Below, one piece after another: positions 5,572 through 23,963 of a stretch of DNA of 64,000 nucleotides. The position numbers were made by a program, and so were the translations under genes. Where the stretch lies: contig JBKHGE010000006.1 in NCBI GenBank assembly GCA_046539845.1, positions 1-64,000 of the forward strand. The letters run 5' to 3'. Positions within the stretch are counted from its first letter, which is position 1; each line of letters begins with the position of its first letter. The stretch is from Desulfonatronovibrionaceae bacterium (GTDB taxonomy: Bacteria; Desulfobacterota; Desulfovibrionia; Desulfovibrionales; Desulfonatronovibrionaceae). Under the pieces are notes generated by a model. It saw only the letters and a list, made by a program, of their open reading frames with translations, searched no databases and was not told the DNA's origin.

Positions 5572-5579
5572 GTCTTAAA

Positions 5580-6374: not shown

Positions 6375-7099
6375 AATTCCTGCTCGACTTCCGGCTCTGC
6401 CTGTCTTTTTTAAGCAGGTTTAAGACCGGCCCGCACGTACTTGACCCGGATTTTTCCCGGACCCTGGCCTGGTTTGTGCCCTGCGGCCTTATCCTGGGCC
6501 TATGCCTGAGTCTGCCGCTGTGGATCCTTAAGGACGGCCCGCCCCCGGCCGCTTTAGCCTGGATCGTGGTCCTGGGGGAGGTCTATCTGACTCGGGGGCT
6601 GCACTGGGACGGGTGGGCCGACTTCTGGGACGCGGTGGGCAGCAATGCCCGGGGGGAGAGATTCTGGGAAATCCTCAAGGACAGCCGCATCGGGGTTTTC
6701 GGCGCCCTGGGCATAGCCTTGGGCATCTCCGGAGAGATCGTCTTGCTCAGCGCGGCTGAAGCGGCCTGGACTGCCGTGGTCTGGGCCATGGTGCTGGGAA
6801 GACTCGCTCCGGTGCTACAGGCCCGGATGGGACAGGGACTGGAGCGGCCCGGTCTGGGACAGATGTTTATCCAGAAAGCGGACCGAAAGACTGTTTTGGG
6901 CTCCTGTGCGGGCACGGCGATAATCGGAGCCCTGCTGATCGGCCCCTGGGGAGTGTTTGTCTCCGGTGCGGTCCTGACCCCAGCCCTCTGCGGCCTGCAG
7001 GCAACGGCCCGGCGGCAGGGGGGACTAAACGGCGATTTTCTGGGTGCGGGGATAATCTCCGGTCAGCTGGCCGGGTACCTAGGGGCCGCGCTTATCTAG
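6371..7099 (+). CDS. cobS: adenosylcobinamide-GDP ribazoletransferase (cobalamin synthase)
   Basis: LTRGLHWDGWADFWDA, ILKDSRIGVFG, GLG and GGLNGDFLGA motifs. ATG 6371 overlaps the upstream stop (ATGA). Confidence 0.92.
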   Translation: MKFLLDFRLCLSFLSRFKTGPHVLDPDFSRTLAWFVPCGLILGLCLSLPLWILKDGPPPAALAWIVVLGEVYLTRGLHWDGWADFWDAVGSNARGERFWEILKDSRIGVFGALGIALGISGEIVLLSAAEAAWTAVVWAMVLGRLAPVLQARMGQGLERPGLGQMFIQKADRKTVLGSCAGTAIIGALLIGPWGVFVSGAVLTPALCGLQATARRQGGLNGDFLGAGIISGQLAGYLGAALI

Positions 7100-7107
7100 T
7101 CCCGGGT

Positions 7108-9057
7108 TTAAGGGGCCGGCTCCAGCCCCTGACCGGGATGCATCTCCCGGCCGCACAGCCCGGTTTCATATCCGCCCAGCCCCTCGATCCTTTTTTTCAC
7201 CTCTTCTTGACTCAGCAGATCCAGTAAGGTGCGCACCTTGGGATCATTCAGGCTGTCTTCGGAAACGAGCAGATCATAGCGTTCCCGGGCCAAGGGGACG
7301 AAGTCCAGACCCAGGGCCCCAGCGGCGGCACTAATGCCCAGACCGCAATCGGCAATGCCGCTTAGGACATTCACAGCCACTGCCATATGCGTGAATTCCT
7401 CGTTTTCATACCCCTTGACCTCATCCGGGGCTATATTGTTCTTTTCCAGATGATAATCGAGGAGGATCCTTGTCCCCGCCCCCCGCTGCCGATTGATGAA
7501 GGTAATGTCGTTTCGGCGCAGGTCCTCGATACTTTTTATGCTTTTGGGATTGCCCCGGGGCACGATCAATCCCTGGTGACGGACGGCCAGATTGAACAGC
7601 CGGACTTGCCCACCCGGCAGATAACGCTTTAAAAACGGGAAATTGAAATCCTCGGACCCAGGATCAAAGAGATGTATCCCGGCCATATGCGCGTTGCCCC
7701 CCTTTATGGCCGTCAGCCCGCCCATACTGCCTACATGGGTGGAACTCATCCGCACAGGCCGGTCCAGGGCCATGAGCTCGTTGGCCAGAAGATCCAGGGT
7801 ATTGTCGTGGCTGCCCACCACCACCAGGGTGCGCTCGATCTCTTCTCCGGGGACCAGAAGTTCAGCCCTGACCAGGCTGCCCTCCTCCAGGCCCTCGGCC
7901 TCAGAAGGCACAGAGACCAGGCCCTGGGCCCGGGTCATGGAGGTTATGCTCCCCGCCCCGCGGGGCAGGGGAGTAGCCACGTACCTGTCCTTCACCCGGC
8001 CCAGAGAGACCCGCAAAAATTCCTCCATGCCGGGACGAGAGGGCACTCTGCGGGTCAAAAAGACTTCCACAACCTCCCGTTGCGGGACAAGCCGGTGCTG
8101 AAGGGCAAAGACAACAGGCCTCAGGATGCGCTCGAAACAGATAATTGAACTCACCGGATACCCGGGGGCGCCGATAAGGACAGTCTTATCCGTGCACCCT
8201 ATAATCGTCGGTTTTCCGGGCATGGCCTTTATCCCGTGCACAAGCACCCTGCCCTTTTCTTCAATCACCCGGCGGGTAAAATCCCTGCTCCCGGCCGAGG
8301 ATCCGGCGCCAAGGACTACAATATGCGCCCCCCGACCGATCGCCTCGTCCACTGCCTGGTTCAGCTCAGAAATATTGTCCGGGACTGGCGGACGGCGCCG
8401 AAAATTACAGCCCCAGTCCCGGGCCATTCCGGCCAGGACCTGGGAGTTGCTCTCTACCACCTGACCAGGTCCGGGGACCGGTTTTTTCTGAAAATCCACC
8501 ACCTCGTCCCCGGAAGGTATAAACTCGATGTTTACCCTTTCTAAAACAGACAGCTCCCATATCCCAGCGGTCAAAAGCGCGCCCAGGTCATAAACGCTCA
8601 CTTCGTGATTGCGGGGCAAAAGGAGCTCCGAGGCTACAATGTCCTCCCCTATCCTGCGCACGTGCTGCCAGGGAAAGGCGGGCTTTTCCAGAACTACGTC
8701 CCCATTTTCCAACCTTTGGACATGCTCGATCATGACCACGGCATCGGTGCCCGGAGGAAGCGGGCCCCCGGTATTTACCCATTGAAAATCCCGCTCCAAG
8801 GAAAGGGTCACTGGGCTGCCCTCCCGGGCCCGGAAAGTGGACTCCGCCTTTAGAGCCACTCCATCCATGGCCGCGCTGTGAAAAGTGGGCGAGGACAGCC
8901 TGGCCCATACCGGCTCGGCCGTAACCCGGCCGATCGCCTCCTGGGCCGGGACGACCTCAATCTGAAGAAGGCTGCCCAGGTCGAGCTCTTCCCCTAGCCG
9001 GTGCAAGGCGACTTCAATAGGCATAACCTGCAAATAAATATTTCTATCCTCAGACAT
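7108..9057 (-). CDS. moeA: molybdopterin molybdotransferase MoeA fused to a C-terminal PBP-type domain
   Basis: SAAMDG, GSSAGSRDF, PGKP, PGYPVS. C-terminal GSHD, GSMGGL, FINRQRGAGTR and E.YDL are typical of the MoeA-PBP fusion. Confidence 0.92.
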   Translation of the reverse strand: MSEDRNIYLQVMPIEVALHRLGEELDLGSLLQIEVVPAQEAIGRVTAEPVWARLSSPTFHSAAMDGVALKAESTFRAREGSPVTLSLERDFQWVNTGGPLPPGTDAVVMIEHVQRLENGDVVLEKPAFPWQHVRRIGEDIVASELLLPRNHEVSVYDLGALLTAGIWELSVLERVNIEFIPSGDEVVDFQKKPVPGPGQVVESNSQVLAGMARDWGCNFRRRPPVPDNISELNQAVDEAIGRGAHIVVLGAGSSAGSRDFTRRVIEEKGRVLVHGIKAMPGKPTIIGCTDKTVLIGAPGYPVSSIICFERILRPVVFALQHRLVPQREVVEVFLTRRVPSRPGMEEFLRVSLGRVKDRYVATPLPRGAGSITSMTRAQGLVSVPSEAEGLEEGSLVRAELLVPGEEIERTLVVVGSHDNTLDLLANELMALDRPVRMSSTHVGSMGGLTAIKGGNAHMAGIHLFDPGSEDFNFPFLKRYLPGGQVRLFNLAVRHQGLIVPRGNPKSIKSIEDLRRNDITFINRQRGAGTRILLDYHLEKNNIAPDEVKGYENEEFTHMAVAVNVLSGIADCGLGISAAAGALGLDFVPLARERYDLLVSEDSLNDPKVRTLLDLLSQEEVKKRIEGLGGYETGLCGREMHPGQGLEPAP

Positions 9058-9161
9058 ATAGGCTCCTTTATCAGCGTTCTAAAATTGCAGATGCCCTAAC
9101 TGGATCCGGCCGACCCCGTAGGGAACAGACCCCTTTAAGGGCAGACAAATCTTTATCCACC

Positions 9162-10404: not shown

Positions 10405-11169
10405 ATGCCGCGGTTCGCCCTCCACCTGGCCTATATCGGGACCGCCTACCACGGCTGGCAGAGACAAAAAGACAAGTCCACCGTGCAGGAGACGGTGGAA
10501 AAGGCTTTGTATACCATCTGCCAGGAGCAAATCACTGTGCACGCCTCCGGGCGGACAGACGCCGGGGTGCATGCCCTGGATCAGGTAATCCACTGCGACC
10601 TCCCTGTGGACAAGCAGGGGATCAGCTGGACCAGGGCCCTGAACGCCATCCTTCCTCCGGATATATGTGTGACCAGACACGCTGAGGTCCCCCCGGAATT
10701 CCACGCCAGGAAAAGCGCCGTGTCCAAGGAATATTCTTATACTTTCTGGACCGAACCGGAGTATGTCCTGCCTCACAAAAGACCGTACGTATGGGAAACA
10801 GGCCCACTGGATTTAATGCAAATGCAGCAAGCACTGGCCGGACTCCGGGGCAGGCATGACTTTGCCGCGCTCATGAATACCGGAACCCCGGTGGGCTCAA
10901 CTGTGCGGACCGTTTCCCGGGCCGAACTGAAATGCGGAAACGGCCCGGAAATCGTGTTCACAGTCCGGGCAAACGGATTTCTGAAGCAGATGGTCCGCAA
11001 CATGTCCGGGCTTTTGTTCGCTGTAGGCAAGGGCAAACTTTCTTCGGAAATGATCCCGGCCCTGCTTTCCGGCCGGGATAGGCAGACGGCGCCGTTGACC
11101 GCCCCGGCAAAAGGGCTGTGCCTGGGCAAAGTATCCTACGACCCAGAGGAATACACCCGGACCGAATAA
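10405..11169 (+). CDS. truA: tRNA pseudouridine(38-40) synthase
   Basis: YHGWQRQ, ASGRTDAGVHA, FHAR, GFLKQMVR and TAPAKGL motifs. Confidence 0.97.
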   Translation: MPRFALHLAYIGTAYHGWQRQKDKSTVQETVEKALYTICQEQITVHASGRTDAGVHALDQVIHCDLPVDKQGISWTRALNAILPPDICVTRHAEVPPEFHARKSAVSKEYSYTFWTEPEYVLPHKRPYVWETGPLDLMQMQQALAGLRGRHDFAALMNTGTPVGSTVRTVSRAELKCGNGPEIVFTVRANGFLKQMVRNMSGLLFAVGKGKLSSEMIPALLSGRDRQTAPLTAPAKGLCLGKVSYDPEEYTRTE

Positions 11170-11316
11170 GGGACCGCCGCCTGCTCGGCAAGCTCTGTCT
11201 CTTGATGCACCCTATGCCCGGACCGGGCGTTAACAAGACTTAATCTTTTTTTATTTTTTGTTTTTTACTCTGCAAACCCAAATCTTTTTTACCCCTCCCT
11301 TGTGTAAACAACTCTT

Positions 11317-11345
11317 TTGACTTACGCACAGATTTTAAGTAAAGT
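11317..11345 (+). promoter_or_regulatory. sigma70-type promoter for the nuo-like operon
   Basis: TTGACT-N17-TAAAGT in an AT-rich intergenic region. Confidence 0.55.
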
Positions 11346-11430
11346 TATGATGTTTTTTGCAGGGCTTAAGTTAGGGCTACCTTACATTTTCCATCCCAAC
11401 CAAACTATACACCGAGTAAACGGAGGGAAA

Positions 11431-11811
11431 GTGGCTTTTTCCTGGACCCATCTGGCCATAATCATTTTTTTTGCCGCGGGCATCTCGTTCGCTGCTATCC
11501 CCCTGATAGCATCCAGGCTTCTAGCCCACAGGTCGGAAACCGAGGCCCTGTTTCAACCTTATGAATGTGGCCTGCCCACCTATGGCTCGGCCTGGGTCAG
11601 ATTCGGTATAAACTATTATTTCTACGCCCTTATTTTCCTGGCCTTTGACGTGGACGTACTCTACCTGTTCCCTGTAGCCCTGTTTTACCGCGAAGCGCAG
11701 GGAATCGCCCCATTTGTGGAAATTTTGATCTTTGTCCTGGTCCTGCTCGCAGCCATAGTCTACTTCCAGCGCAAGGGAGTTTTCACCTGGCCGGGGAGGA
11801 TCAAGATATGA
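11431..11811 (+). CDS. nuoA: complex I-like subunit A
   Basis: [18 protein letters not shown] and KGVFTW motifs. GTG start after GGAGG. Confidence 0.93.
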
Positions 11812-12320
11812 TCCAGTATCAAGAAGAATTCACCGAACCGCTGCTGCACATAGAACTGGCAGACAAATTCTTGAATATCTGCCGCTCCATGTCCCTGTGG
11901 CCAATGACCTTTGGTATCGCCTGCTGCGCCATCGAAATGATGGCTGCCAGCATGGCCCGCTTCGACACCGCCCGCTTTGGCGCGGAAGTGTTCCGGCCTT
12001 CCCCGAGGCAGGCGGACCTGATGATTGTCGCCGGGACCGTTTCCCGCAAGATGGCCCCTCCATTAGTTAGGCTTTATGAACAGATGCCCGCCCCGAAATG
12101 GGTGATCGCCATGGGCAACTGCGCCATATCCGGGGGCCCGTTCGTCTTTGACGGCCAATACAATGTCGTCGAGGGAGTGGATCAATTGGTTCCGGTTGAT
12201 GTTTACGTGCCCGGCTGTCCGCCCCGGCCGGAAGGTCTTTTGGAGGGTCTATTCAAACTGCAGGAAAAAATAACCGGCAGGCGCTGGTGGCCGGACCCCC
12301 CTGCAGGAGGTAGGAAATGA
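11808..12320 (+). CDS. nuoB: complex I-like subunit B (cluster N2)
   Basis: [16 protein letters not shown] (tandem CC), [14 protein letters not shown] and PGCPPRPE motifs. Confidence 0.96.
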
Positions 12321-12868
12321 AAAACCATCTCCTGGATATATTGCGAAAAAACGGGGCTATCTGCCGCAGTACAAACCTGGAAGGCACCGGATACAAAAAC
12401 TTTGTTTTCATCCTCCCGGCCTACCTGGAAGCAGCGGTAAAAATTGTTGATGCGGCAGGCTATTTTTTAGAAGACATTACCTGTTGCCAGGTAAAAGAGG
12501 GCCTGGAACTCATCTATCACTTCGACCATTACCACAGCCCGGGCCGCATATGTCTGCGTACCCTGATAGACGAGGACAAGGCGGAAATTTCCTCCATTGC
12601 CTCCATTTATCCCGGGGCACAGTGGCACGAAAGGGAATGCACGGACTTTTTCGGCCTCACCTTCCAGGGCAATCCCAACCCGGTGCCGCTTCTCCTCTCC
12701 CCGCAAAATCCTGGTCCGGTCCTGAAAAAAAAAGCAGGCAAACTGCAAGGGCTAGAAGAGTTCCTCCCGGAAAGCCTGACAATCAAACACCCGGGCCATA
12801 ATTCCGGGATCGAGGACATCCTGGCCGGATGGGCGGAGGATATCGGAAAAGACAGGGGGCAAAAGTGA
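12317..12868 (+). CDS. nuoC: complex I-like subunit C
   Basis: [29 protein letters not shown] motif and position in the operon. Confidence 0.88.
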
Positions 12869-14031
12869 GTCTTATAGGCAATGATGTCCTGGCCGGAAAA
12901 GGAGACTTCTATACCCGGCATTTCCAGCCCACGCCCAGGGAAGACACTCTGATTCTGAACATGGGGCCACAGCACCCTTCCACTCACGGCGTGCTCCGGG
13001 TCATGCTGGAAATAGACGGGGAATACATCATCCGAGCCGAGCCGGTCATAGGCTATGTGCACCGCATGCAGGAAAAAATGGGTGAGTGCTTTGACTACAA
13101 CCAGTATCTCCCGAATATGGCCCGGGTGGATTACCTGCATCCTTTGGCCTGGAACTGGGCCTATGTAGGGACGGCGGAAAAACAGATGGGCTTGGAGGTC
13201 CCGGAGCGGGCCGAATACATCCGGGTTATCACCTGCGAACTGAACAGGATAAGCTCGCATCTTTTGTGGTGGGGGACCTATCTTCTGGACCTGGGTGCGT
13301 TTACCCCCATACTATACGCCTTTGCCGACCGGGAGAAACTGGCCGACATCCTGCAAAGGATAACCGGGTCTAGGCTGACCTTCTCCCTGTATCAAATAGG
13401 CGGATGCAAGGCAGACATGGACGACCGCTTCATCCGGGAGACCAGGGAGTTTATAGACTATATGCGCTCCCGTTTTCCCATGTATAAAGACTTGGTCACC
13501 GACAACCTCATTCTGCGCAAGCGGGTGGAGGGCATCGGCGGCATAACCCGGGAGGAATGCCGCAAATACGGGGCCAGCGGCCCGATCGTCCGCGCCTCGG
13601 GAATAGATTACGATGTCCGCCGGGCTGAGCCCTATTCCGTGTATGACCGTTTTGAATTCGATTGCCCGGTATATGAGGAAGGGGACGCACTGGCCAGATA
13701 CCTGGTCCGGATGGAAGAAATGGAGCAAAGCCTGAAAATAATCGAGCAGGCCCTTGAGCAACTCCCGGACGGGGACATAATGGCCCCCAAGGTGCCCAAA
13801 AAGCCGAAACCCCCGGCCGGGGAAGTGTACCACGCAGTAGAAAGCGGCCGGGGAAAGGTGGGAGTATGCCTAATAAGCAACGGTTCCCCGGTTCCCTACC
13901 GAGTAAAACTGCGCTCCCCTTCGTACAGCAATTTAAGCCTTTTCCCTGGCATTTCCAAAGGCACATTGCTTGCCGACGCCATCTCCATTCTGGGAAGTCT
14001 GGATCTGATTGTTCCGGAGATTGACAGATGA
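12865..14031 (+). CDS. nuoD: complex I-like subunit D (quinone-binding)
   Basis: NMGPQHPSTHGVLR, GYVHR..EK, RVDY, C-terminal SLD...EIDR. No NiFe-binding CxxC pairs. GTG start overlaps the nuoC stop. Confidence 0.95.
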   Translation: MSLIGNDVLAGKGDFYTRHFQPTPREDTLILNMGPQHPSTHGVLRVMLEIDGEYIIRAEPVIGYVHRMQEKMGECFDYNQYLPNMARVDYLHPLAWNWAYVGTAEKQMGLEVPERAEYIRVITCELNRISSHLLWWGTYLLDLGAFTPILYAFADREKLADILQRITGSRLTFSLYQIGGCKADMDDRFIRETREFIDYMRSRFPMYKDLVTDNLILRKRVEGIGGITREECRKYGASGPIVRASGIDYDVRRAEPYSVYDRFEFDCPVYEEGDALARYLVRMEEMEQSLKIIEQALEQLPDGDIMAPKVPKKPKPPAGEVYHAVESGRGKVGVCLISNGSPVPYRVKLRSPSYSNLSLFPGISKGTLLADAISILGSLDLIVPEIDR

Positions 14032-15002
14032 ACGAAATAACACTGCATATAATCCGGATATGGGCCGGGCTGTTCATCATCCTCTCCTTTGTCAGTGTAA
14101 ACGCCATTGTCCTGGTCTACCTGGAGCGGAAAATAGCCGGACACATCCAGAGAAGGCCGGGCCCGTTCGAAGTCGGGCCACACGGCATACTCCAGCCGTT
14201 CGCGGACGCGGTCAAGCTTTTGGGCAAACAGCTCATAACCCCCTTCTATGCGGACGTAATCCTTTACTGGGCCGCGCCCATTCTTTCCTTCGCCCCGGTC
14301 GCGGTCTGCTTTCTGCCCATTCCAGCCGGCCCGAATACCCGAATAATGGATATAAATGTCGGGGTAATCCTGGTTTTGGCCTTCAGCGGCCTGAACGTTT
14401 TGGCCCTGTGCCTGGCCGGATGGGGATCACAGAACAAATGGTCCCTTCTGGGCGCGGCCCGGAACATTGCCCAGTCCGTGGGCTACGAAATCCCGCTCCT
14501 TCTATCTGTTATGCCCATCCTCATGCTCTCCGGGAGCCTGGATTTAAACACCATAACCCTAAATCAGGGCGTATGGCCCTGGGAATGGTACGCTTTCAAA
14601 CAGCCCCTGGCCTTTATCATATTCTTTGTCTGCGCCCTGGCGGAAACCAACCGGGCGCCGTTTGACCTGCCGGAAGCGGAAAGCGAGCTCACCGCTGGAT
14701 TCCATACCGAATACTCCGGCATGGGCTTTGGCCTGTTCTTCATGGCCGAATATACGTACATGATTGTTGTCTGCTCCCTGACCACGCTTCTGTTTCTGGG
14801 CGGATACCAGGGGCCTCTCGCTTCCGGATGGTGGTGGTTCGTACCCAAGGTATACGGACTTTTGCTGATCATGATGTGGATCCGCTGGACTTTTCCCCGG
14901 GTGCGCTTTGATCAACTGCTCAATGTAAGCTGGAAATGGCTGATCCCGGCCTCGCTTTTAAACCTTCTGGCAACCGCTTTGGTGATAAGCCTATGCTCCT
15001 GA
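14028..15002 (+). CDS. nuoH: complex I-like subunit H
   Basis: ERKIAGHIQRRPGP, ETNRAPFDLPEAESELTAGFHTEYSG and PRVRFDQL motifs. Confidence 0.96.
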   Translation: MNEITLHIIRIWAGLFIILSFVSVNAIVLVYLERKIAGHIQRRPGPFEVGPHGILQPFADAVKLLGKQLITPFYADVILYWAAPILSFAPVAVCFLPIPAGPNTRIMDINVGVILVLAFSGLNVLALCLAGWGSQNKWSLLGAARNIAQSVGYEIPLLLSVMPILMLSGSLDLNTITLNQGVWPWEWYAFKQPLAFIIFFVCALAETNRAPFDLPEAESELTAGFHTEYSGMGFGLFFMAEYTYMIVVCSLTTLLFLGGYQGPLASGWWWFVPKVYGLLLIMMWIRWTFPRVRFDQLLNVSWKWLIPASLLNLLATALVISLCS

Positions 15003-15502
15003 AAGTAAAAAAGACTTTGGCCGGCTTGTGGAGCCTGATTGTCGGCCTGAAAATAACCGGACACAATTTCTGCAGCCCGCAGCTGACAGTTCACTATCCG
15101 CGGGAGGAAGTCACCAACCTGGACGGGTTTCACGGTCATGTGGAGCTGGTGCCCAGCCCCAAGGACCCCATGATCCCCAAGTGTATAGCCTGCGGGACCT
15201 GCGTCCGGAACTGCCCGTCGCAGTGCATAAGCCTGGATTTTGAAAAGATAGAACCTACGGCGGAAGAAGAAAAAGACTCCCATTCCGGCGGGAAAAAGAA
15301 AAAAAGCCAGAAAAAAGTGACCGGATTCGTTCTGGATTTCAACTACTGCAGCCTTTGCGGGCTGTGCGTCAGGAGCTGCCCGGTCGGTTCCCTCCGCTTT
15401 TCCAGTGACGTGTACCTGGCCGGATTCGACCCGCAGGAATTCAGACTGGATCTCTTGGAACGCATGCGCGGACAGATTGACACCCAAGGAGAAAAAGACT
15501 GA
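14993..15502 (+). CDS. nuoI: complex I-like subunit I, 2x[4Fe-4S]
   Basis: TVHYP, CIACGTCVRNCP and CSLCGLCVRSCP motifs. Confidence 0.92.
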   Translation: MLLKVKKTLAGLWSLIVGLKITGHNFCSPQLTVHYPREEVTNLDGFHGHVELVPSPKDPMIPKCIACGTCVRNCPSQCISLDFEKIEPTAEEEKDSHSGGKKKKSQKKVTGFVLDFNYCSLCGLCVRSCPVGSLRFSSDVYLAGFDPQEFRLDLLERMRGQIDTQGEKD

Positions 15503-16011
15503 TGTTTTATTTGAGCCTGAGTGTGTTGGCAGCGCATATGGTTTTGATCATTATCGGAGCGTTTATCACTGTTCTGGCCAAGAGCCTGGTCCGGGCCCTG
15601 ACCGGACTGATAATGACCCTTTTTGGCGTGGCCGGGCTGTATTTCCTTTTGGCCGCCCCTTTTATCGCCCTTATGCAGCTCCTTATCTACGTAGGCGCGG
15701 TGAGCATCCTTATCTTCTTCTCCATAATGCTTACCCAGGCCTCGAGTGTCGGGGAGGAAGGCCAGAGGAGAAGGCGGCTTAAAACAGTGTACGCCTTTTT
15801 GTCCGCTCTGGCTCCGGCTGTTTTTCTAGGCCTGGCGGTGATAAAGACCTCCCCCCCGTCCCTGTCCACCCCGCAGGAGATAAGGGCCACCGACCTTGGG
15901 GAATTTATGCTCGGACCTTACGTCCTGCCCTTTGAACTCATCTCCCTGGTCCTGCTCGTGTCCATGGCCGGGGCTGTTCTGCTCGGATTTGAAAAGAGGA
16001 AAAAACGATGA
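15502..16011 (+). CDS. nuoJ: complex I-like subunit J
   Basis: QLLIYVGAVSIL and YVLPFELISLVLLVSMAGA motifs. Confidence 0.92.
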   Translation: MFYLSLSVLAAHMVLIIIGAFITVLAKSLVRALTGLIMTLFGVAGLYFLLAAPFIALMQLLIYVGAVSILIFFSIMLTQASSVGEEGQRRRRLKTVYAFLSALAPAVFLGLAVIKTSPPSLSTPQEIRATDLGEFMLGPYVLPFELISLVLLVSMAGAVLLGFEKRKKR

Positions 16012-16316
16012 CTTTCTTGACTTTTTTTCACCTGGTGGCGGTCTTCCTACTCTGCATCGGGCTTTTCGGAATAATCTGGCGCCGGACCATAGTAGGCATC
16101 CTTTTGAGCGTGGAGCTCATGCTTAACGGAGCGGGCCTGAGCATAATGGCCTCCACTCAGCTGACAACAACCGCGAATGCCCTCGGTCAGGTAGGCACCC
16201 TTCTGGTCATGGGCCTGGCTGCGGCCGAAGCCACCCTAGTCCTGGCCATTATCCTGGTTGTGGCCAAACGGTTCGGAACGATAGAACTGCGCTATATATC
16301 TAGTCTCAGGGGATAA
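16008..16316 (+). CDS. nuoK: complex I-like subunit K
   Basis: LSVELMLNG and AAAEA motifs, three TM segments. Confidence 0.92.
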   Translation: MTFLTFFHLVAVFLLCIGLFGIIWRRTIVGILLSVELMLNGAGLSIMASTQLTTTANALGQVGTLLVMGLAAAEATLVLAIILVVAKRFGTIELRYISSLRG

Positions 16317-16318
16317 AA

Positions 16319-17794
16319 ATGGAAAAAAGCGCTCTTGTTCTTCTGCCTCTGGGGATAACCATGCTTGCCCCGTTTGCCTTGTGGCTTTTGCGCAGGGACA
16401 TAAACAAGCGGGAAGCGGTATCCCTTGTCGCGGCGGTCGCTTCCTTTCTGAGCGTGACCGCCCTTATTCCCGGGGTATTAAACGGCAGCGTATACATCTA
16501 TCCCCTTTTCCGGATCTTGCCCGGGATACATGTCAAATTCTGCGCGGACGGGCTGTCCCTTATATTCGCGCTGGTGGCCACTTTTCTGTGGATCCTGGCC
16601 ACCGTGTATAATATCGGCTACATGCGCGGACTCAAGGAGCATGCCCAGACCAGGTATTATTTCTGCTTTGCCGTGGCCATATTCGGTGCCGTGGGCGTGG
16701 CCTTTAGTGCCAACATATTCACCCTGTACCTGTTCTACGAAATAATCACCATTTTCACCTATCCCCTGGTCGCCCATCACCAGGACGCCGAAGGATACCA
16801 CGGCGGGCGCAAGTATGTGGTTTATCTCATGGGTACCTCCAAGCTCTTTTTACTCCCGGCCATGCTTATGACCTATGTCTTGGCCGGGACCCTGGATTTC
16901 AACCTCACGGACATGGTCCACGGCATATTCCCGGACAGCGCCGATCCGCTGTGGGTGAGCGTAACTTACTTCCTGTTTCTGGCCGGACTGGCCAAGGCGG
17001 CCATAATCCCGCTTCACAACTGGCTGCCCTCGGCCATGGTCGCTCCCACTCCGGTAAGCGCGCTCTTGCACGCCGTGGCCGTAGTCAAGGCCGGGGTGTT
17101 TTCCATAAGCCGGGTCATTCTCTCCGGTTTCGGAGTGCAGACCATGGACAACCTCCATCTGGGCGAGCCCACCGCGTATCTGGCCGCCCTAACCATTGTC
17201 GCCGCCTCTTTGGTGGCCTTGACCAAGGACGACTTAAAGGCCAGGCTGGCTTATTCCACGGTCAGCCAGCTCTCGTACATAATCGTGGGCGTGGCCATGC
17301 TCACTCCGGTGGCTGTAACCGGCGGACTGATCCATATCGCCAACCACGCCTTCAGCAAGATCACCCTGTTTTTTGCCGCCGGGGCCATATTCGTGGCCAC
17401 CGGGACCAAGAAAATAAGCAATATGTCCGGGCTGGGCCGAAAAATGCCCTGGACCTTCGGGGCCTTTGCCCTGGCCACGCTTAGTATGGTCGGCATCCCC
17501 CCGGTATGCGGATTTGTCAGCAAGTGGTTTCTGGCCGAAGGAGCGGTAAGAATAGACAATATGCTCCTTTTGACCGCGCTTTTGGCCAGCACGCTTTTAA
17601 ACGCCGCCTATTTCGGGCCGGTGGTGTACAAGGCCTTTTTCCAGTCCCGGCCGCAAGAGGCGGAAACGCGGCAAATAAGCGAAGCCCCGCTGGCAATGGT
17701 TTTGCCTCTGGCCCTGACCGCGCTCGTATCGGTTGTACTCGGCCTGTACCCGGATCCTTTCCTGAACCTGATCCGGGCTTTCGGAGGTTTTTAG
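16319..17794 (+). CDS. extra antiporter-like subunit (MrpD-like, proton-conducting membrane transporter family)
   Basis: FYEIIT (TM5 Glu), KAAIIPLHNWLPSAM.APTPVSALLH, LAYSTVSQLSY and FVSKW motifs. 491 aa with no lateral helix. Confidence 0.9.
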   Translation: MEKSALVLLPLGITMLAPFALWLLRRDINKREAVSLVAAVASFLSVTALIPGVLNGSVYIYPLFRILPGIHVKFCADGLSLIFALVATFLWILATVYNIGYMRGLKEHAQTRYYFCFAVAIFGAVGVAFSANIFTLYLFYEIITIFTYPLVAHHQDAEGYHGGRKYVVYLMGTSKLFLLPAMLMTYVLAGTLDFNLTDMVHGIFPDSADPLWVSVTYFLFLAGLAKAAIIPLHNWLPSAMVAPTPVSALLHAVAVVKAGVFSISRVILSGFGVQTMDNLHLGEPTAYLAALTIVAASLVALTKDDLKARLAYSTVSQLSYIIVGVAMLTPVAVTGGLIHIANHAFSKITLFFAAGAIFVATGTKKISNMSGLGRKMPWTFGAFALATLSMVGIPPVCGFVSKWFLAEGAVRIDNMLLLTALLASTLLNAAYFGPVVYKAFFQSRPQEAETRQISEAPLAMVLPLALTALVSVVLGLYPDPFLNLIRAFGGF

Positions 17795-18046
17795 ATGCAG
17801 AAAAACTTTTTCACCCGGCAAAAAGAAAAAACCTTGTTCTGGAAAAGATCCTTTTTCGGCTTGTTGGTTTTGCTTCTTATGGCCAATTACTTTATCCGGC
17901 CGCAGCACCCCCATTTCGGCCTGGAAAAGATCCCCGGCTTCTGGGCTGTGTTCGGCCTGGGCGGGGCGATCATCCTGGCGATTTTGAGCAAAGCAGCCGC
18001 GCACAGGCTGCTCGGACGAGGCGAGGACTTTTATGATCGGCACTAA
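17795..18046 (+). CDS. small 2-TM membrane protein inside the complex I-like operon
   Basis: Abuts the upstream gene and overlaps the downstream one. Two hydrophobic segments. HF..E.IPGF...R.EDFYD pattern recalled from small proteins in Mrp-like cassettes. Confidence 0.8.
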   Translation: MQKNFFTRQKEKTLFWKRSFFGLLVLLLMANYFIRPQHPHFGLEKIPGFWAVFGLGGAIILAILSKAAAHRLLGRGEDFYDRH

Positions 18047-19799
18047 TTTCATACATCCCGCGCTCTTCTTTTTGCTTCTGGCTGCTTTTTTACCTTTTTG
18101 CCGCGGCAGGTACTGGAGATTTTTGCTCCCGCTTCCCGGTATCGCCGCCATCTGCGCGGTCATGCTCATGCAGAGCGGGCAATACATGCATCTCGACTAT
18201 CTGGGCGTGCATCTGACCCTGGGCCGGGTGGACAAATTGTCCATAGTCTTTGCCCACGTATTCGCTTTGCAGGCGATAATCGGCTTCATCTATGCCTGGC
18301 ATATCCGGGACAGGGGCCAGCATGTCGCGGCCGCCCTGTATATTGCCGGTGCGTTCGGCTCCACTTTCGCCGGAGATTTCCTGACCCTGTTCATATTCTG
18401 GGAACTCATGGCTGTTTCCTCCACCTTCCTTATCTGGCTAAACCGACGCAAAAAATCAGTGGATGCCGGTTTCAGGTATTTCTTGTTCCACACCCTGGGC
18501 GGGCTTTTCCTTCTGGCCGGGATACTCCTTAAATACAAGGCCACGGGCAGCTTTGCATTCCAGCCCGTTGTCCCTGCCGGGGCCGCATGGGCCGATTATT
18601 TGATCCTTTTGGGCTTTGCCGTGAACGCGGCGGTCATTCCTCTGCACGCCTGGCTCCCGGACGCCTATCCGGAAGCGACCATCACCGGAGCGGTCTTTTT
18701 GAGCGCGTTTACCACCAAGACCGCGGTCTATGTCCTGGCCCGCGGATTTGCCGGCTTTCCCGTCCTGGCCGTGGCCGGGACGGTGATGGCTGTCTACGGG
18801 GTCTTCTACGCCACTATTGAGAACAATGCCCGCAGGATTCTGGCCTATCACATAGTCTCCCAGGTGGGATACATGGTCGCCGGGATCGGGGTGGGCACGG
18901 CCCTGACCGTGAACGGGGCCTGCGCCCATGCCTACGCACATATCCTGTACAAGGGGCTTTTGTTCATGGGCGCGGGGTGTCTCTTGTATGCCACCGGGAC
19001 CTCCAGGCTCACGCAGATGGGCGGGCTCATATCCAAGCTCCCGCTAGTATTCATCGGGTATATGGTCGGGGCGGTCTCCATATCCGGATTCCCGCTTTTC
19101 TCCGGGTTCGTGAGCAAGACCATGGTCATATCCGGCACGGCCGCGGCCCATCACACCTGGCTGGCCCTGGGCCTGGAACTGGCCGCGGTGGGCACGTTCT
19201 TGTCCGTGGGCATAAAGCTGCCTTATTTCGCCTTTTACGGAGCGAAAAAAAATACGCAGGAGATAAAACCCCTGCCCCTAAACATGTATGTGGCCATGTT
19301 CCTGGCCAGCCTGCTTTGCCTGGCCATCGGCGTCTATCCGCAAATGCTTTACAAACTGCTCCCCTTTCCGGTGAGTTACCAGCCGTACACTGCCTGGCAC
19401 CTGACCCAGTCCCTCTTGCTCCTCGGGTTTACCGGACTTGGATTCTATCTCTTACGCCAAAAGCTCCGGCCGGAAGCAAAAATCAATCTGGACTTCGACT
19501 ATGTATACCGGCTGATCGGCCGGGGATTTATGCGCTTTTGCCGCCGCCCGGTTGAAACCGTGGACAATGTCTGGTCCGGCGTATACGCCCGCATCGGACT
19601 GCGGGGACTGTCCGGACTGGCCAAGGGGTCGGCCGAGTTTGACCGGGAAGAAATCGACCGGGTGGTGGACGGGACCGCTTTCAGTTTTCTGCGTCTGGGA
19701 AGGCGCCTAAACCTCCTGCAGACCGGAAACCTGCAGGATTATCTGGCCATGGCCGCCTTTATAGGTCTGGCCATCTTTGCCCTGGCCTATTTTCTGTAA
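18033..19799 (+). CDS. NuoL/MrpA-like antiporter subunit with C-terminal lateral helix
   Basis: FWELMA, PLHAWLPDAYP, TTKTA, LAYHIVSQVGYM, FVSK. The C-terminus FD...IDRVVDG...LQTGNLQDY plus a final TM is NuoL-type. Confidence 0.88.
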   Translation: MIGTNFIHPALFFLLLAAFLPFCRGRYWRFLLPLPGIAAICAVMLMQSGQYMHLDYLGVHLTLGRVDKLSIVFAHVFALQAIIGFIYAWHIRDRGQHVAAALYIAGAFGSTFAGDFLTLFIFWELMAVSSTFLIWLNRRKKSVDAGFRYFLFHTLGGLFLLAGILLKYKATGSFAFQPVVPAGAAWADYLILLGFAVNAAVIPLHAWLPDAYPEATITGAVFLSAFTTKTAVYVLARGFAGFPVLAVAGTVMAVYGVFYATIENNARRILAYHIVSQVGYMVAGIGVGTALTVNGACAHAYAHILYKGLLFMGAGCLLYATGTSRLTQMGGLISKLPLVFIGYMVGAVSISGFPLFSGFVSKTMVISGTAAAHHTWLALGLELAAVGTFLSVGIKLPYFAFYGAKKNTQEIKPLPLNMYVAMFLASLLCLAIGVYPQMLYKLLPFPVSYQPYTAWHLTQSLLLLGFTGLGFYLLRQKLRPEAKINLDFDYVYRLIGRGFMRFCRRPVETVDNVWSGVYARIGLRGLSGLAKGSAEFDREEIDRVVDGTAFSFLRLGRRLNLLQTGNLQDYLAMAAFIGLAIFALAYFL

Positions 19800-19872
19800 C
19801 CGCGTTTCAAATGCAAAGAACAATTACGGAAAAAATGAATAAAAACAAACACCTTATCCGGAGTGCTCTAAG

Positions 19873-21426
19873 ATGCCTTACTGGCCCCTTTTAAGCATTC
19901 TCATATTCCTGCCCCTAGCGGCCGGACTGGTCATGGGGACCCTGCGCACTTCCGGGCAGGTGCGGGCTTTTGCCCTGGGGACCGGGCTGGTGGAGTTCAT
20001 CTGCTCCCTGCCCCTGCTCCTGGCCTTTAACCCGAAAAACTCCTCCTTTCAATTCCAGGAACTGCATCCGTGGATAGCCAAATGGGGCATAAACTATCAC
20101 CTGGGCGTGGACGGCATGAGTCTTGTCCTCGTTGTCCTGACAACCTTTCTTCTGCCCCTATGCGTACTTTGTTCCTGGTCGTATATCAAAACCAGAGTCC
20201 TGGAATTTTACATCTGCCTGATGCTTATGACCGCGGCCTGCGTGGGAGTGTTCTGCGCCCTGGACCTTGTTTTGTTCTATGTCTTCTGGGAGGCCATGCT
20301 CATCCCCATGTTCCTGCTCATTGCCGTATGGGGCGGACCACAACGCAAATATGCGTCCATAAAATTCTTTGTCTATACCCTGGCCGGAAGCACCCTGCTT
20401 TTGGTGGCCATAATCGCCTTTTACCGCGCCTCGGGTACATTCTCCATCCCGGAACTCCTTCAGGCCGAGCACGGATTTGACTTTCAGTTGTGGACATTTC
20501 TGGCCATGGCCCTGGCCTTTGCCATAAAAGTGCCCATGTTTCCCTTTCATACCTGGCTCCCGGCCGCCCATGTCCAGGCCCCGGCAGCCGGATCTGTGCT
20601 TTTGGCCTCAGTGCTCCTTAAAATGGGCACTTACGGATTCATCCGTTTCTGCCTGGGGCTCACCCCGGAGGCCAGTGTGTACTTCGCCCCGCTCATGATC
20701 GCCGTGTCCATTGTCTCCATAATCTACGGCGGTCTGGTGGCCCTGGGGCAAACGGACATCAAGAAGCTTATCGCCTACTCCTCGGTGGCCCATATGGGCT
20801 TTGTCACCCTGGGCATTTTTGTCTTTACCCAGGAGGGGCTTGAAGGGGCGATGATGCAGATGGTCAACCACGGCATCACCACCGGCGCGCTTTTCATGAT
20901 GGTCGGAGCGGTTTACGAGAGGAGCCACAGCCGGCTTATCCGGGACAACCTGGGAATGGGCAAATACCTGCCGGCATACATATTCTTTTTCGGGCTTTTC
21001 TCCCTCTCCTCCCTGGCCTTCCCGGGGACAAACAGCTTTGTGGGCGAGGCATTGGTCATTATCGGAACCATGCAGAAAAACATGCTCCTTGGGCTTCTGG
21101 CCGTGCCCGGCGCGCTCCTGGCAGCCGCGTACATGCTCCGGCTATTGCAGAAAATGGCCTGGGGGGAACCGGCCAAGGCCGCTGGATGGCCTGATTTATC
21201 CATTCGGGAATGGCTGTACCTGGCCCCGTGTGCCATACTGGTCGTGTATATAGGATTGGCTCCGGGGGGCCTGATCCGGACCATGGATCATTCAGTACAC
21301 AGCATAATGAAAAACACGGCTGTTTATGCGCAAAAACAAAACCCGGACAAGGGGCGCCTGGCGGAAAACAGCTTGCTACCGCTAAAATCCGCAGAAAAAC
21401 TACCGGGCAGCCGGGACCTTTATTAA
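19873..21426 (+). CDS. nuoM: complex I-like subunit M
   Basis: LGVDGMS, FYVFWEAMLIPMF, AIKVPMFPFHTWLP, LLKMGTYG and FVGE motifs. Confidence 0.95.
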   Translation: MPYWPLLSILIFLPLAAGLVMGTLRTSGQVRAFALGTGLVEFICSLPLLLAFNPKNSSFQFQELHPWIAKWGINYHLGVDGMSLVLVVLTTFLLPLCVLCSWSYIKTRVLEFYICLMLMTAACVGVFCALDLVLFYVFWEAMLIPMFLLIAVWGGPQRKYASIKFFVYTLAGSTLLLVAIIAFYRASGTFSIPELLQAEHGFDFQLWTFLAMALAFAIKVPMFPFHTWLPAAHVQAPAAGSVLLASVLLKMGTYGFIRFCLGLTPEASVYFAPLMIAVSIVSIIYGGLVALGQTDIKKLIAYSSVAHMGFVTLGIFVFTQEGLEGAMMQMVNHGITTGALFMMVGAVYERSHSRLIRDNLGMGKYLPAYIFFFGLFSLSSLAFPGTNSFVGEALVIIGTMQKNMLLGLLAVPGALLAAAYMLRLLQKMAWGEPAKAAGWPDLSIREWLYLAPCAILVVYIGLAPGGLIRTMDHSVHSIMKNTAVYAQKQNPDKGRLAENSLLPLKSAEKLPGSRDLY

Positions 21427-21534
21427 AAAAGTAAGGCCGCTGAATGGAGTTTATAAGCACTCGGTTGAGCACTGATTCCTGCGGCGAATTACATCGGCAA
21501 ATACGTAAAATGACCCAAACAAGCCGGATATGAT

Positions 21535-22956
21535 ATGAATCCCAATTTTTCTTTGCAGTTTTTCATCCCGGAAATATACATGCTGGCCCTAGTAGTGGCC
21601 CTTTTTTTCCAGAGCATATCCAAAAATTTTCGGGAACGTACTGACTGGGTCCCGTACGCCTCATTTGCCGGGGTCTTTTTGGCCCTTATCACCTTTGGCC
21701 AAAACGGGAGCTTTTTATACAGCACATTTAAGGTGGACGGGCTGTCCCAGTTCTTCAAATTCGCAGTCTTTTTGGGCCTGGCCGTGTGCAGTGCCAACGC
21801 CTCCAGAAACAACACCCTGGAGGAAAAAGTGCACCGGGCGGATTACTTCATGTTCATGGCCCTTTCCTGCTTCGGGCTTGTCCTTTTATCCAGCGCCGTG
21901 GAAATGTTCACCATATTCATCGCCCTGGAGCTCTCCGCATTCAGCCTGTATGTACTCATTCCCTTGCGCAGAAACGAGCCCCGGGCAGCCGAGGCCGGGA
22001 TCAAATATATCCTGTTCGGGGCGGCGGCCACCGCCCTGGGACTGTATGGCATTTCCTACATCTTGGCAGTCAAGCACACCACTTTTCTGCACGCCCTGAG
22101 CCAGATGTCCTGGTCCTTTGAGAATGAACCCCTGGCCGTGATCGGATTTTCCCTGTTCCTGATCGCCTTTTTGTACAAGCTGGCCCTGTTTCCCTTTCAT
22201 TTCTGGTGCCCGGACGTATTTCAGGGCACCAGCAACGAGACCGCCGCCTTTGCGGCCACGTTGCCCAAACTTGGGGCCGTGGCGGTCCTCATCCGGGTAA
22301 TATCCTTCATGCCCGCCGAGGAGCTGAAAACGATCCTGTCCATCCTGGCCGCCCTGTCCATGACCATTGCCAACCTGGCCGCCCTGAACCAAAAAGACGT
22401 CAAGAGGCTCCTTGGCTACTCCAGTGTATCCCATGCCGGATATATCATGCTCGGCTTGATTGCCGCGGGCGCGTACGGGCTTGCTTCGGCCGCGTTCTAT
22501 TCCCTGGTCTACCTGCTCATGAACCTGGCCGTGTTCTGGGTGATAACCAGGCTGGCCGGGAGGGGACAAAACATCTACCTAAACGATTTAAACGGGCTGC
22601 ACAAAACCGCGCCCCTTTTGGCCCTGGTTCTGGCCATAGGCGCCTTTTCCCTGGTGGGGCTGCCACCCACCGGCGGGTTCACCGGCAAGCTGTTTCTCAT
22701 GACCGCGGCCTGGAAAACCGGCCATCACTGGGTGGTCATAATCGCCGCCCTGAACACCGGTCTGGCCGTCTACTATTACCTGAACCTGGTCCGGCATGCC
22801 TATACTGTTCCGGCCACGGGCAGACAGGACTTCTCCCCCTCCTGGCCCGCGGCGGGCATCGGGCTTCTCATGGCTGCAGGCATAGTCTATCTGGGGATCG
22901 CTCCGGGGAATATCTTGGATTGGCTGCTTAGGGCGGGTCAGATGCTCAAGTTCTAG
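21535..22956 (+). CDS. nuoN: complex I-like subunit N
   Basis: EAGIKY, KLALFPFHFWCPDVFQG, KRLLGYSSVSHAGY, GLPPTGGFTGK and YYYL motifs. Confidence 0.95.
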   Translation: MNPNFSLQFFIPEIYMLALVVALFFQSISKNFRERTDWVPYASFAGVFLALITFGQNGSFLYSTFKVDGLSQFFKFAVFLGLAVCSANASRNNTLEEKVHRADYFMFMALSCFGLVLLSSAVEMFTIFIALELSAFSLYVLIPLRRNEPRAAEAGIKYILFGAAATALGLYGISYILAVKHTTFLHALSQMSWSFENEPLAVIGFSLFLIAFLYKLALFPFHFWCPDVFQGTSNETAAFAATLPKLGAVAVLIRVISFMPAEELKTILSILAALSMTIANLAALNQKDVKRLLGYSSVSHAGYIMLGLIAAGAYGLASAAFYSLVYLLMNLAVFWVITRLAGRGQNIYLNDLNGLHKTAPLLALVLAIGAFSLVGLPPTGGFTGKLFLMTAAWKTGHHWVVIIAALNTGLAVYYYLNLVRHAYTVPATGRQDFSPSWPAAGIGLLMAAGIVYLGIAPGNILDWLLRAGQMLKF

Positions 22957-23963
22957 ATCCCGCTGCCCTGACGGACAAGGGAGATAAACCGATCCAGGGA
23001 ATGCAGGAGCCGGCGCAGCCTTTTCTGCTCCTCCTTGTTTAGTCTGTACGGGTTAACACCGACCTGGAGCCGGTCCGGGTAATCCAGATTGCTGATAATC
23101 CTTTTGTACTGGGCCCAGGCCCATAATTCGGCCAGGTCCCGGGCCATCTTCTTTGGGATGTGCCTGTCTTCGCCCAGGGCGGAAATTCTTTCCCGGGTAT
23201 GCGCCCTGTCTATTCCATGCTTCAGGCAAAGCAGCCTGGCCGCGTTGGTCAGATGGGAGAGAATGGCGTGTTTAACATCCATACTCCCTTTGAGACCCCC
23301 TTCCCTCTCCAGGACAAACCCGCCCCAGAAAGTGACCGGTGCCTTGTACTCAGCGATTTCCAGGGCCAGGTTCTTTAAAATGGCCGGATGATCCCGGACT
23401 AATCCGCGCAACTCGGATCGCAAAGCCTCGGCCTGTTCATACAACCTCCCGGAGACCGGCAAAAAATCCACTATGGTCCCCAGCTGCCAGCCGCCCTCAT
23501 CTCGGGGATTGAGCAGCCACTTGGTCAGCCGCTTCCTCCAGGCGTGAAAATCCCCCCGCCACTTTTCGCTGCTTACCATGACCTGTCCGGGGCAGAGCCG
23601 CAGCCCACAGCCGTCCAGGGTCAAAACCAGCCTCTGGCTGGCCTCATCAAGCTGATTGGGATCCGGCTCCTCCTTCCAGAGAAGGCCGTTGTCCTGATCC
23701 GAGGAGAGGACCTGTTCCTCCCGGGCCCCGGACCCAAACTCCAAAAAGGTGCAGTGCTCAAGCCAGGGGTATTCGCGGCCGAAAAAGGCCAGAGCAGCCC
23801 TTTCGGTCCTGCGGTTAAAGCCGGCAATGGCCCGGCAGATCTCTTCGGCCCCGGAGTTTTTTTCCACCAGCTCCCAGACCATGTTCTGCCTGGCCCTTTG
23901 CACTTGTTCCAGCTCTCCCCGGGCGATGCAGCGGCCGATATCAACCGTTTCTGAAAAATCCAT
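22953..23963 (-). CDS. DUF294 putative nucleotidyltransferase (DUF294 + DUF294_C), no CBS/cNMP domains
   Basis: FGSGAREEQVLSSDQDNGL (GS..R.E...DxD), CPGQVM.S..W and D.K...L...AR motifs. ATG 23963 has a GGAGG RBS. Confidence 0.85.
   Translation of the reverse strand: MDFSETVDIGRCIARGELEQVQRARQNMVWELVEKNSGAEEICRAIAGFNRRTERAALAFFGREYPWLEHCTFLEFGSGAREEQVLSSDQDNGLLWKEEPDPNQLDEASQRLVLTLDGCGLRLCPGQVMVSSEKWRGDFHAWRKRLTKWLLNPRDEGGWQLGTIVDFLPVSGRLYEQAEALRSELRGLVRDHPAILKNLALEIAEYKAPVTFWGGFVLEREGGLKGSMDVKHAILSHLTNAARLLCLKHGIDRAHTRERISALGEDRHIPKKMARDLAELWAWAQYKRIISNLDYPDRLQVGVNPYRLNKEEQKRLRRLLHSLDRFISLVRQGSGI

Follow-up and report, generated by a model that had tools for sequence, protein, structure and literature searches.

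A headless nuo operon with a three-gene cassette shared with mrp operons in the place of nuoL in a Desulfonatronovibrionaceae bacterium

The first 64,000 nucleotides (nt) of contig JBKHGE010000006.1 (C6) of a Desulfonatronovibrionaceae bacterium (assembly GCA_046539845.1), hereafter the window, carry an operon for a complex I-like enzyme at positions 11431–22956. It comprises thirteen open reading frames (ORFs), all on the + strand, in the order nuoA-B-C-D-H-I-J-K, three genes encoding proteins of 491, 83, and 588 amino acids (aa), nuoM, and nuoN; nuoE, nuoF, and nuoG are absent from the operon. The domain PF00361 (Proton_antipo_M) is present in four of the proteins: those of 491 and 588 aa, NuoM (517 aa), and NuoN (473 aa). 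The operon very probably encodes a “green-type” complex I that lacks the NADH-oxidising module and has a three-gene cassette shared with mrp operons in the place of NuoL; the enzyme would transfer electrons from ferredoxin (possibly flavodoxin) to menaquinone.

An earlier note, made from the sequence alone, had placed a headless complex I homologue with four antiporter-like subunits at exactly these coordinates. The composition, order, and location of the operon are borne out by the ORF coordinates and by matches to Pfam and NCBIfam, which identify NuoA, NuoB, NuoC, NuoD, NuoH, NuoI, NuoJ, NuoK, NuoM, and NuoN, and the number of antiporter-like subunits agrees with the four occurrences of PF00361. 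The feature is real, correctly located, and was sensibly read. Its genes are the following:

11431..11811, +, nuoA, 126 aa from an ATG start (PF00507, 93 bits); a longer ORF starts with TTG at 11317
11808..12320, +, nuoB, with a tandem CC (residues 39–40) and two more cysteines for cluster N2 (PF01058; TIGR01957, 226 bits)
12317..12868, +, nuoC (PF00329)
12829..14031, +, nuoD, without NiFe CxxC ligands (PF00346, 306 bits; NF004739, 438 bits, above cut-off)
14028..15002, +, nuoH (PF00146, 378 bits; NF004741, above cut-off)
14936..15502, +, nuoI, with two 4Fe-4S motifs (Fer4 families and NuoI models)
15502..16011, +, nuoJ (PF00499)
16008..16316, +, nuoK (PF00420)
16319..17794, +, L-type antiporter-like subunit, 491 aa (PF00361 and PF00662; NF006236, 790 bits, above cut-off)
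17795..18046, +, small membrane protein of 83 aa with two transmembrane helices, unnamed family, middle gene of the cassette (profile search and conservation at the locus)
18033..19799, +, HL-type antiporter-like subunit, 588 aa (PF00361; NF009310, 741 bits, above cut-off)
19873..21426, +, nuoM (TIGR01972, 587 bits, above cut-off; groups with E. coli NuoM)
21535..22956, +, nuoN (TIGR01770, 325 bits, slightly below the cut-off of 332.6; groups with E. coli NuoN)

From nuoA to the 588-aa gene, adjacent genes either overlap by 1–67 nt or are separated by 0–2 nt; the gaps upstream of nuoM and nuoN measure 73 and 108 nt. The operon is flanked by a tRNA pseudouridine synthase gene (truA) upstream and a convergent gene for a DUF294 nucleotidyltransferase downstream, neither of which is redox-related. 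A consensus scan of positions 10800–23400 for promoters and terminators yielded counts near the shuffled expectation (10 versus 7.0 ± 2.9 and 22 versus 16.3 ± 4.3), so that the operon boundary cannot be claimed from the scan.

The cassette proteins and their relatives in nuo and mrp operons

The 491-aa (L-type) protein carries both Proton_antipo_N and Proton_antipo_M, and its closest solved structures by sequence are MbhH, MrpA, an MBS subunit, NdhF, and NuoL. An alignment with NuoL, NuoM, and NuoN of E. coli indicates that it keeps the glutamate of transmembrane helix (TM) 5 and the lysines of TM7 and TM12. The motif at TM7b–TM8 contains both histidine and lysine and is of the NuoL/MrpA type; the combination in TM8 has been attributed to MrpA by Steiner and Sazanov (PMC7419157). 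With about 14 TM segments and neither a C-terminal extension nor a lateral helix, the protein is, as judged from its sequence, a NuoL/MrpA/MbhH-type core without lateral helix.

The core of the 588-aa (HL-type) protein is closest in sequence to the solved structures of an MBS subunit, MrpD, and NuoM, and its TM8 has lysine only, as in MrpD, whereas its C-terminus aligns to the end of NuoL models. An AlphaFold2 model based on a 58-row alignment (mean predicted local distance difference test score 89.1) places TM15 at residues 454–473, a continuous helix of 75 residues at 488–562, and the last TM at 568–587, with low confidence at 545–567. In Foldseek searches, the whole model aligns with MrpA, NdhF, and NuoL over 630–680 columns, whereas MrpD and NuoM fit the core alone at lower root mean square deviation. 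The protein is thus an MrpD/NuoM-type core extended by NuoL-like TM15, lateral helix, and TM16. The earlier note had called the 491-aa protein MrpD-like and the 588-aa protein NuoL/MrpA-like; the kinship of both with Mrp and Nuo subunits holds, but the labels were partly swapped because it is the NuoL-type core that lacks the helix and an MrpD-type core that bears it.

The genome encodes 11 proteins with PF00361, and all are accounted for: four in this operon, three in each of two mrp operons on contigs C16 and C19, and one (EchA) in an Ech hydrogenase. Since this leaves no canonical NuoL, the 588-aa gene is the only gene with a lateral helix in the nuo operon. The nearest named relatives of both large cassette proteins (72–79% identity) are found in Desulfonauticus, a Desulfohalobiaceae strain, and Desulfovulcanus.

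The 83-aa protein between them has two hydrophobic stretches and matches no entry in Pfam, NCBIfam, or the Protein Data Bank (PDB); in the protein atlas, it falls only into clusters of “hypothetical proteins”. A word-based homologue search with the protein returned only three proteins; a profile of five sequences retrieved 963 cluster representatives with E ≤ 0.001, of which 91 reached E ≤ 1e-10; most are 65–110 aa in length. An alignment of 41 members reveals a conserved histidine-rich turn, a Pro-Gly-Phe-Trp stretch, a lysine in the second helix, and an acidic, tyrosine-rich C-terminus. A complex prediction of the 491-aa protein (residues 1–480), the 588-aa core (1–451), and the small protein (15–83) gave scores of 0.00 and 0.00, which is evidence neither for nor against an interaction. 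As a guess, the small protein may hold the 491-aa subunit in place at the distal end of the membrane arm.

The earlier note had also related the additional genes to Mrp antiporters, which is supported by the organism's own mrp operon on contig C19. This operon encodes MrpE, an unassigned ORF, MrpG, MbhD, MbhE/MnhB, MrpC, and a 498-aa MrpD-like protein and ends in a paralogous trio of a 499-aa L-type gene, a gene for a 160-aa protein, and a 587-aa HL-type gene. The L-type and HL-type subunits of this trio share 55% and 45% identity, respectively, with those of the window, as opposed to 25–29% with NuoL or NuoM of E. coli. The 160-aa protein (13319–13801 of locus L013) has two N-terminal helices that align with the 83-aa protein and a biotin/lipoyl-like C-terminal domain; the PF00364 match lies on a longer ORF that overlaps its gene. 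The mrp operon on contig C16 (locus L012, 5341–12680, − strand) is a second, more divergent one, in which the last two antiporter-like genes overlap with no small gene between them; its helix-bearing subunit of 608 aa keeps the lysine of TM7 and lacks the glutamate of TM5.

The distribution of the cassette was assessed with the HL-type alignment, which matched at least 605 stretches in a search against one genome per species; the best 80 of 575 stretches encoding relatives, among the matches listed, were kept, and the sample therefore leans toward relatives of the window's protein. Loci were labelled by the best BLASTP match of each ORF of at least 55 aa among 42 reference proteins, with counts taken from + strand ORFs. 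The 80 loci comprise 63 nuo operons with the block, 12 mrp operons that end in it, and five that are too short or unclear. Of the nuo loci, 62 contain the L-type gene and 55 have an ORF labelled as the small gene, a label also found in 8 of the 12 mrp loci. NuoE and NuoF labels occur in 16 of the 63 nuo loci, and 22 of the 25 nuo loci that hold NuoB, NuoD, NuoH, NuoM, and NuoN have no NuoE/F in the locus, whereas three have. Carriers belong to Thermodesulfobacteriota (many), Acidobacteriota (a metagenome-assembled genome, MAG), Nitrospirota, Verrucomicrobiota, and several pseudomonadotan classes, among other taxa; they include Dissulfurispiraceae, Opitutaceae, Telmatospirillum, rhizobia, Burkholderiaceae, Nitrosomonadales, Ectothiorhodospiraceae, and a MAG of the Zetaproteobacteria. 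Within the order to which the window belongs, the NCBIfam model of the HL-type subunit scores above its cut-off in 97 of 151 genomes, a count that includes mrp copies. The rarity implied by the earlier note is not borne out by this frequency, nor by the literature: the block is the published membrane arm of green complex I, and a “NUO11+M” operon type has already been catalogued.

In a tree of 57 rows (IQ-TREE in quick mode, LG+G4, Shimodaira–Hasegawa-like approximate likelihood ratio support only, rooted on EchA), the 491-aa protein falls into a clade of 14 rows and the 588-aa protein into a clade of 16 rows, each with a support of 100 and each mixing nuo and mrp contexts. Both clades are separate from the pair of NuoL from E. 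coli and Balneolaceae and from NuoM and NuoN of E. coli, whereas NuoM and NuoN of the operon group with their E. coli counterparts. A second tree of 89 HL-type rows (FastTree, rooted on six NuoM/N/MrpD-like rows) has Methanophagales and mrp-context rows at its base, and the context label needs at least three changes. The window's protein is located in an all-nuo clade of 39 rows (support 99), the sister clade of which (30 rows) contains the rhizobial rows together with five mrp rows. Both topologies are consistent with a cassette of Mrp origin that moved more than once, without constituting proof of it.

Two loci of the sample have unusual arrangements. In a Methanophagales MAG (L084), which is basal in the HL-type tree, a single locus of 21 kb combines four HL-type genes with L-type and small genes. 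In a Dehalococcoidaceae MAG (L091), NuoE-, NuoF-, and NuoG-like genes lie directly 5' of an mrp operon with the cassette at its end, which hints at a redox module beside an Mrp-type complex.

Electron input and proposed function

The subunits NuoA, NuoB, NuoC, NuoD, NuoH, NuoI, NuoJ, and NuoK are all encoded in one operon, and both the Q-module (NuoB, NuoC, NuoD, and NuoI) and the membrane heel (NuoH, NuoA, NuoJ, and NuoK) are ordinary. NuoB has the tandem CC and the remaining cysteines for cluster N2, and NuoD is devoid of any CxxC, whereas EchE, the large subunit of the Ech hydrogenase of the same genome, which served as control, has two. These features agree with the view of the earlier note that the enzyme is of the quinone-reducing type and not a hydrogenase. 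An energy-converting [NiFe] hydrogenase of the Ech/Mbh type is ruled out at this locus by the absence of NiFe CxxC pairs from NuoD. The Ech-type energy-converting [NiFe] hydrogenase (EchA-, EchB-, EchC-, and EchE-like genes) is encoded on contig C11 at about 4276–9146 on the − strand and represents a second membrane-bound ferredoxin route in the same genome.

Across the entire assembly (2.34 Mb, 65 contigs, 98.91% complete), PF01512 (NuoF) and PF01257 (NuoE) have no match, although the same models matched in 9 and 8, respectively, of 14 reference genomes. The NuoG model TIGR01973 has a single match in the genome, with 45.6 bits against a cut-off of 470. The enzyme is therefore headless also at the level of the genome: a nuoEFG set elsewhere, which the earlier note had named as the case that would turn the operon into that of a standard enzyme, was searched for in the assembly and not found.

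The assignment to a sulfate reducer is supported by dsrA (621 bits), which has a dsrB-like neighbour. The genome further contains four genes for POR_N-type 2-oxoacid:ferredoxin oxidoreductases, one for an aldehyde:ferredoxin oxidoreductase, two flavodoxin-domain matches, and two MqnA/MqnD-type genes of the futalosine route to menaquinone; it has no match to Rnf. Because the visible low-potential carriers are of the ferredoxin type and there is neither Rnf nor a NuoF-type enzyme leading toward NAD, the simplest reading is electron transfer from ferredoxin to menaquinone, and the most likely function is that of a ferredoxin:menaquinone oxidoreductase equipped with a single additional pump module. 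Electrons would enter at NuoI from reduced ferredoxin, possibly flavodoxin, and pass through its two 4Fe-4S clusters to N2 and menaquinone.

A possible docking feature, to judge from the primary structure, is the spacer between the two 4Fe-4S motifs of NuoI, which has 43 aa with a run of lysines as opposed to the usual 27 aa. Spacers in related loci range from 23 to 107 aa and are 40–107 aa long and lysine-rich in many headless loci of the Desulfovibrionales type. Among the eight NuoE/F-bearing loci scored, five have the 27-aa spacer; those of L020, L023, and L027, which also bear NuoE/F, measure 55–58 aa and are not lysine-rich. A lysine-rich extension of FpoI in Methanothrix reportedly has been proposed to bind ferredoxin, which is a lead but not a test.

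In the membrane arm, the heel would likely be followed by NuoN, NuoM, the 588-aa subunit, and the 491-aa subunit. The helix of the 588-aa protein would run back over NuoM and NuoN in the manner of the NuoL helix. The modelled helix, with its 75 residues, is near canonical length. The stretch from TM15 to TM16, of which it forms part, comprises about 94 residues, compared to about 80 in NuoL of E. coli. The excess of about 14 residues is smaller than the insert of 26 aa tied to one added subunit in other complex I forms (see below), which would place the 588-aa protein beside NuoM in the seat of NuoL and the 491-aa protein at the distal end. The proposed placement of the 491/588 pair mirrors the MrpA-N/MrpD pair of the Mrp antiporter.

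The midpoint potentials of ferredoxin (about −420 to −500 mV) and menaquinone (about −74 mV) span approximately 0.35–0.4 V, which is close to the span between NADH and ubiquinone and renders both four and five protons per electron pair feasible. The additional antiporter-like subunit could raise the yield by up to one proton per two electrons over that of canonical complex I. A stoichiometry of five protons per electron pair would favour reversibility, and the enzyme run in reverse could push electrons from menaquinol down to ferredoxin.

Several observations weigh against this reconstruction as a whole or in part. In the HL-type family, the lysine of TM7 is replaced by asparagine (residue 198 of the 588-aa protein) in all 58 aligned rows from both nuo and mrp contexts; it is kept in all other antiporter-like subunits aligned (NuoL, NuoM, NuoN, L-type, and MrpD-like). 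Current coupling models treat the TM7 lysine lacking in the helix-bearing subunit as essential, and the HL-type subunit may therefore not pump like NuoM, so that the stoichiometry could still be four. The order of the subunits is a likely one that is based on helix length and analogy and not on an assembly model. The absence of the lysine-rich loop from the headless loci of the L054–L061 group, which have the 27-aa spacer, implies that the loop does not mark the use of ferredoxin in general. Close relatives in the clade of the window's protein (L020, L023, and L027) carry nuoEFG inside the operon, which suggests that the head is easily gained or lost, and with 1.1% of the marker genes missing from the assembly, an absent contig could in principle hide one. 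Lastly, both trees gave long-branch warnings, and canonical MrpA and MrpD are not among their rows. In L020, nuoE-F-G is inserted between nuoC and nuoD, and two ORFs each are labelled L-type and NuoN, probably as a result of split genes.

The same operon anatomy would also suit an enzyme that operates mainly in reverse, in which the proton gradient is spent on reducing ferredoxin with menaquinol from the periplasmic oxidation of H2 or formate and the extra pump module adds driving force. In the absence of both Rnf and a NuoF-type bifurcating enzyme, the genome offers few routes to reduced ferredoxin, and the same argument has been published for complex I forms with extra pumps (PMC9040806). 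However, the genome already provides for the formation or use of reduced ferredoxin through its pyruvate and aldehyde ferredoxin oxidoreductases and Ech, and the direction of electron flow cannot be told from the sequence; we consider this alternative possible but rather unlikely. Less probable still is an enzyme that uses NADH or another donor via an input module that is encoded elsewhere or not recognised as such, for example a formate dehydrogenase-like or NuoG-like partner. Such a module would be in line with the NuoG-like gene downstream of nuoN in the headless relatives L054, L057, L060, and L061, with the nuoEFG genes of the close relatives L020, L023, and L027, and with the draft status of a genome in 65 contigs; it conflicts with the lack of any NuoE or NuoF match in a genome that is 98.9% complete, with models that had matches in 9 and 8 of the 14 reference genomes, and with the redox-unrelated neighbours (truA and the DUF294 gene) of the operon. 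The possibility that the 491/83/588 genes encode or contribute to a distinct cation/proton antiporter of the Mrp type and are merely co-transcribed with nuo, leaving the Nuo complex with NuoM and NuoN only, has in its favour that NCBIfam calls both large proteins Mrp subunit D and that the trio terminates two kinds of mrp operon, but is rejected as highly improbable because MrpB, MrpE, MrpF, and MrpG are all missing from the operon, the two complete mrp operons of the genome contain copies of their own, 62 of the 63 nuo loci, from different phyla, have the trio inserted between nuoK and nuoM, and a Nuo complex without it would have no lateral helix.

In the second headless lineage (L054, L057, L060, and L061; Desulfobacteraceae, Syntrophobacteraceae, and Desulfosudis), the NuoG-like gene after nuoN could encode an alternative input module.

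Taking the ferredoxin:menaquinone oxidoreductase as the basis, a more speculative scenario can be drawn, which as a whole we regard as doubtful. The L-type core, the protein with two TMs, and the helix-bearing MrpD-type core would form a portable pump module that was exchanged repeatedly between Mrp antiporters and complex I. As an obligatory and hitherto unrecognised subunit, the small protein would hold the helix-less distal pump in place, the asparagine-bearing subunit would act as a modified relay instead of a standard pump, and the stoichiometry of the enzyme would be tuned for reversibility.

Comparison with known complex I and Mrp systems

The layout of the operon is not new: it is the usual nuo operon of bacteria of the Desulfovibrionales type, and its membrane arm has already been named in the literature. 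The value of the locus is that of a pointer to a widespread complex I with four pumps, to a conserved small subunit that has no name in the family libraries, and to a helix-bearing subunit without the TM7 lysine. A search of solved chains returned no structure of the four-pump form, the best sequence matches scoring no more than 128–175 bits. In a literature search that did not cover Chadwick 2018, Pereira 2011, and Degli Esposti & Martinez Romero 2016, no description of the protein with two TMs, the exchange of lysine for asparagine, or the lysine-rich NuoI loop was found, and the available parts of PMC5109826, PMC11238625, PMC4453560, PMC12361115, and PMC5861303 contain no mention of the small gene, a helix on an MrpD-type core, or the asparagine.

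The closest known system is the “green complex I” of rhizobia, attributed to Degli Esposti & Martinez Romero 2016 (via PMC9040806 and PMC7415380), in which NuoL is replaced by two MrpD-like subunits (PMC9040806). The annotation of pSymA of S. meliloti lists nuoJ, nuoK, a “monovalent cation/H+ antiporter subunit D family protein”, an 84-aa “hypothetical protein”, “Na(+)/H(+) antiporter subunit D”, nuoM, nuoN, and nuoA-B-C-D-E-F-G, that is, the same block as in the window (nuoK, genes for proteins of about 487–490 aa, 84 aa, and about 586–587 aa, nuoM, nuoN). The rhizobial HL-type and L-type proteins are 51–53% and 55% identical to those of the window, respectively, and fall into the same clades of the first tree; the small proteins can be aligned. 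In the window, as in rhizobia, nuoK and nuoM enclose two antiporter-like genes, and a canonical NuoL is lacking. The gene order in rhizobia is a rearranged one, with J to N before A to G, and their operon includes the NADH module, whereas that of the window is colinear from A to N and headless; in the second tree, the rhizobial HL-type rows belong to the sister clade. The membrane arm is hence that of green complex I, here in a headless version with colinear gene order. Homologs also occur on plasmids, where a tblastn search yielded 397 records with identities of up to 53%; in 101 of these, the match extends over at least 80% of the query.

Among sulfate reducers, the nuo operon of D. africanus has been labelled “NUO11+M” (Degli Esposti 2015, PMC4758237), and the genome paper of D. 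gigas (PMC4287179), citing Pereira 2011, reports a Desulfovibrio nuo operon without nuoEFG for which ferredoxin was proposed as donor. These operons share with that of the window the headless nuo set, one extra antiporter-like subunit, and ferredoxin as the proposed donor. There, the extra gene was counted as an added “M”, whereas the cassette of L-type, small, and HL-type genes and its Mrp kinship are not described in the available parts of either paper.

The 2M complex I of Nitrospira and others (Chadwick et al. 2018; via PMC9040806 and PMC7419157) likewise has four antiporter-like subunits, for which a higher H+/2e− ratio or stronger reverse electron transport has been proposed as the gain. 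Its fourth subunit is a second NuoM, and its canonical NuoL is retained, with an insert of 26 aa in the helix where the second NuoM is added (Yu et al., PMC9040806). By contrast, the window's operon has no canonical NuoL, and its TM15–TM16 stretch is only about 14 residues longer than that of E. coli NuoL. Assignment to the 2M type is ruled out by the presence of a single NuoM-clade gene and the absence of a NuoL-clade gene.

The large cassette proteins of the window resemble MrpA-N and MrpD of the Mrp antiporter (PDB entries 6z16, 7qru, and 7d3u). In the solved Mrp structures, the lateral helix resides on MrpA, whereas in the window's operon it is attached to an MrpD-type core. MrpB, MrpC, MrpE, MrpF, and MrpG are all missing from the operon and are encoded in the separate mrp operons on contigs C16 and C19.

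The complex I-like enzymes with 11 subunits, such as NDH-1 and the enzymes of Desulfitobacterium and Campylobacter, have three antiporter-like subunits and a canonical NuoL or NdhF. Like the enzyme encoded in the window, these ferredoxin or flavodoxin enzymes (cyanobacterial NDH-1; Desulfitobacterium, PMC11238625; Campylobacter as cited there) are without N-module, possess a quinone-reducing Q-module, and are expected to use a low-potential protein donor. NdhF also belongs to the closest fold matches of the model of the 588-aa protein.

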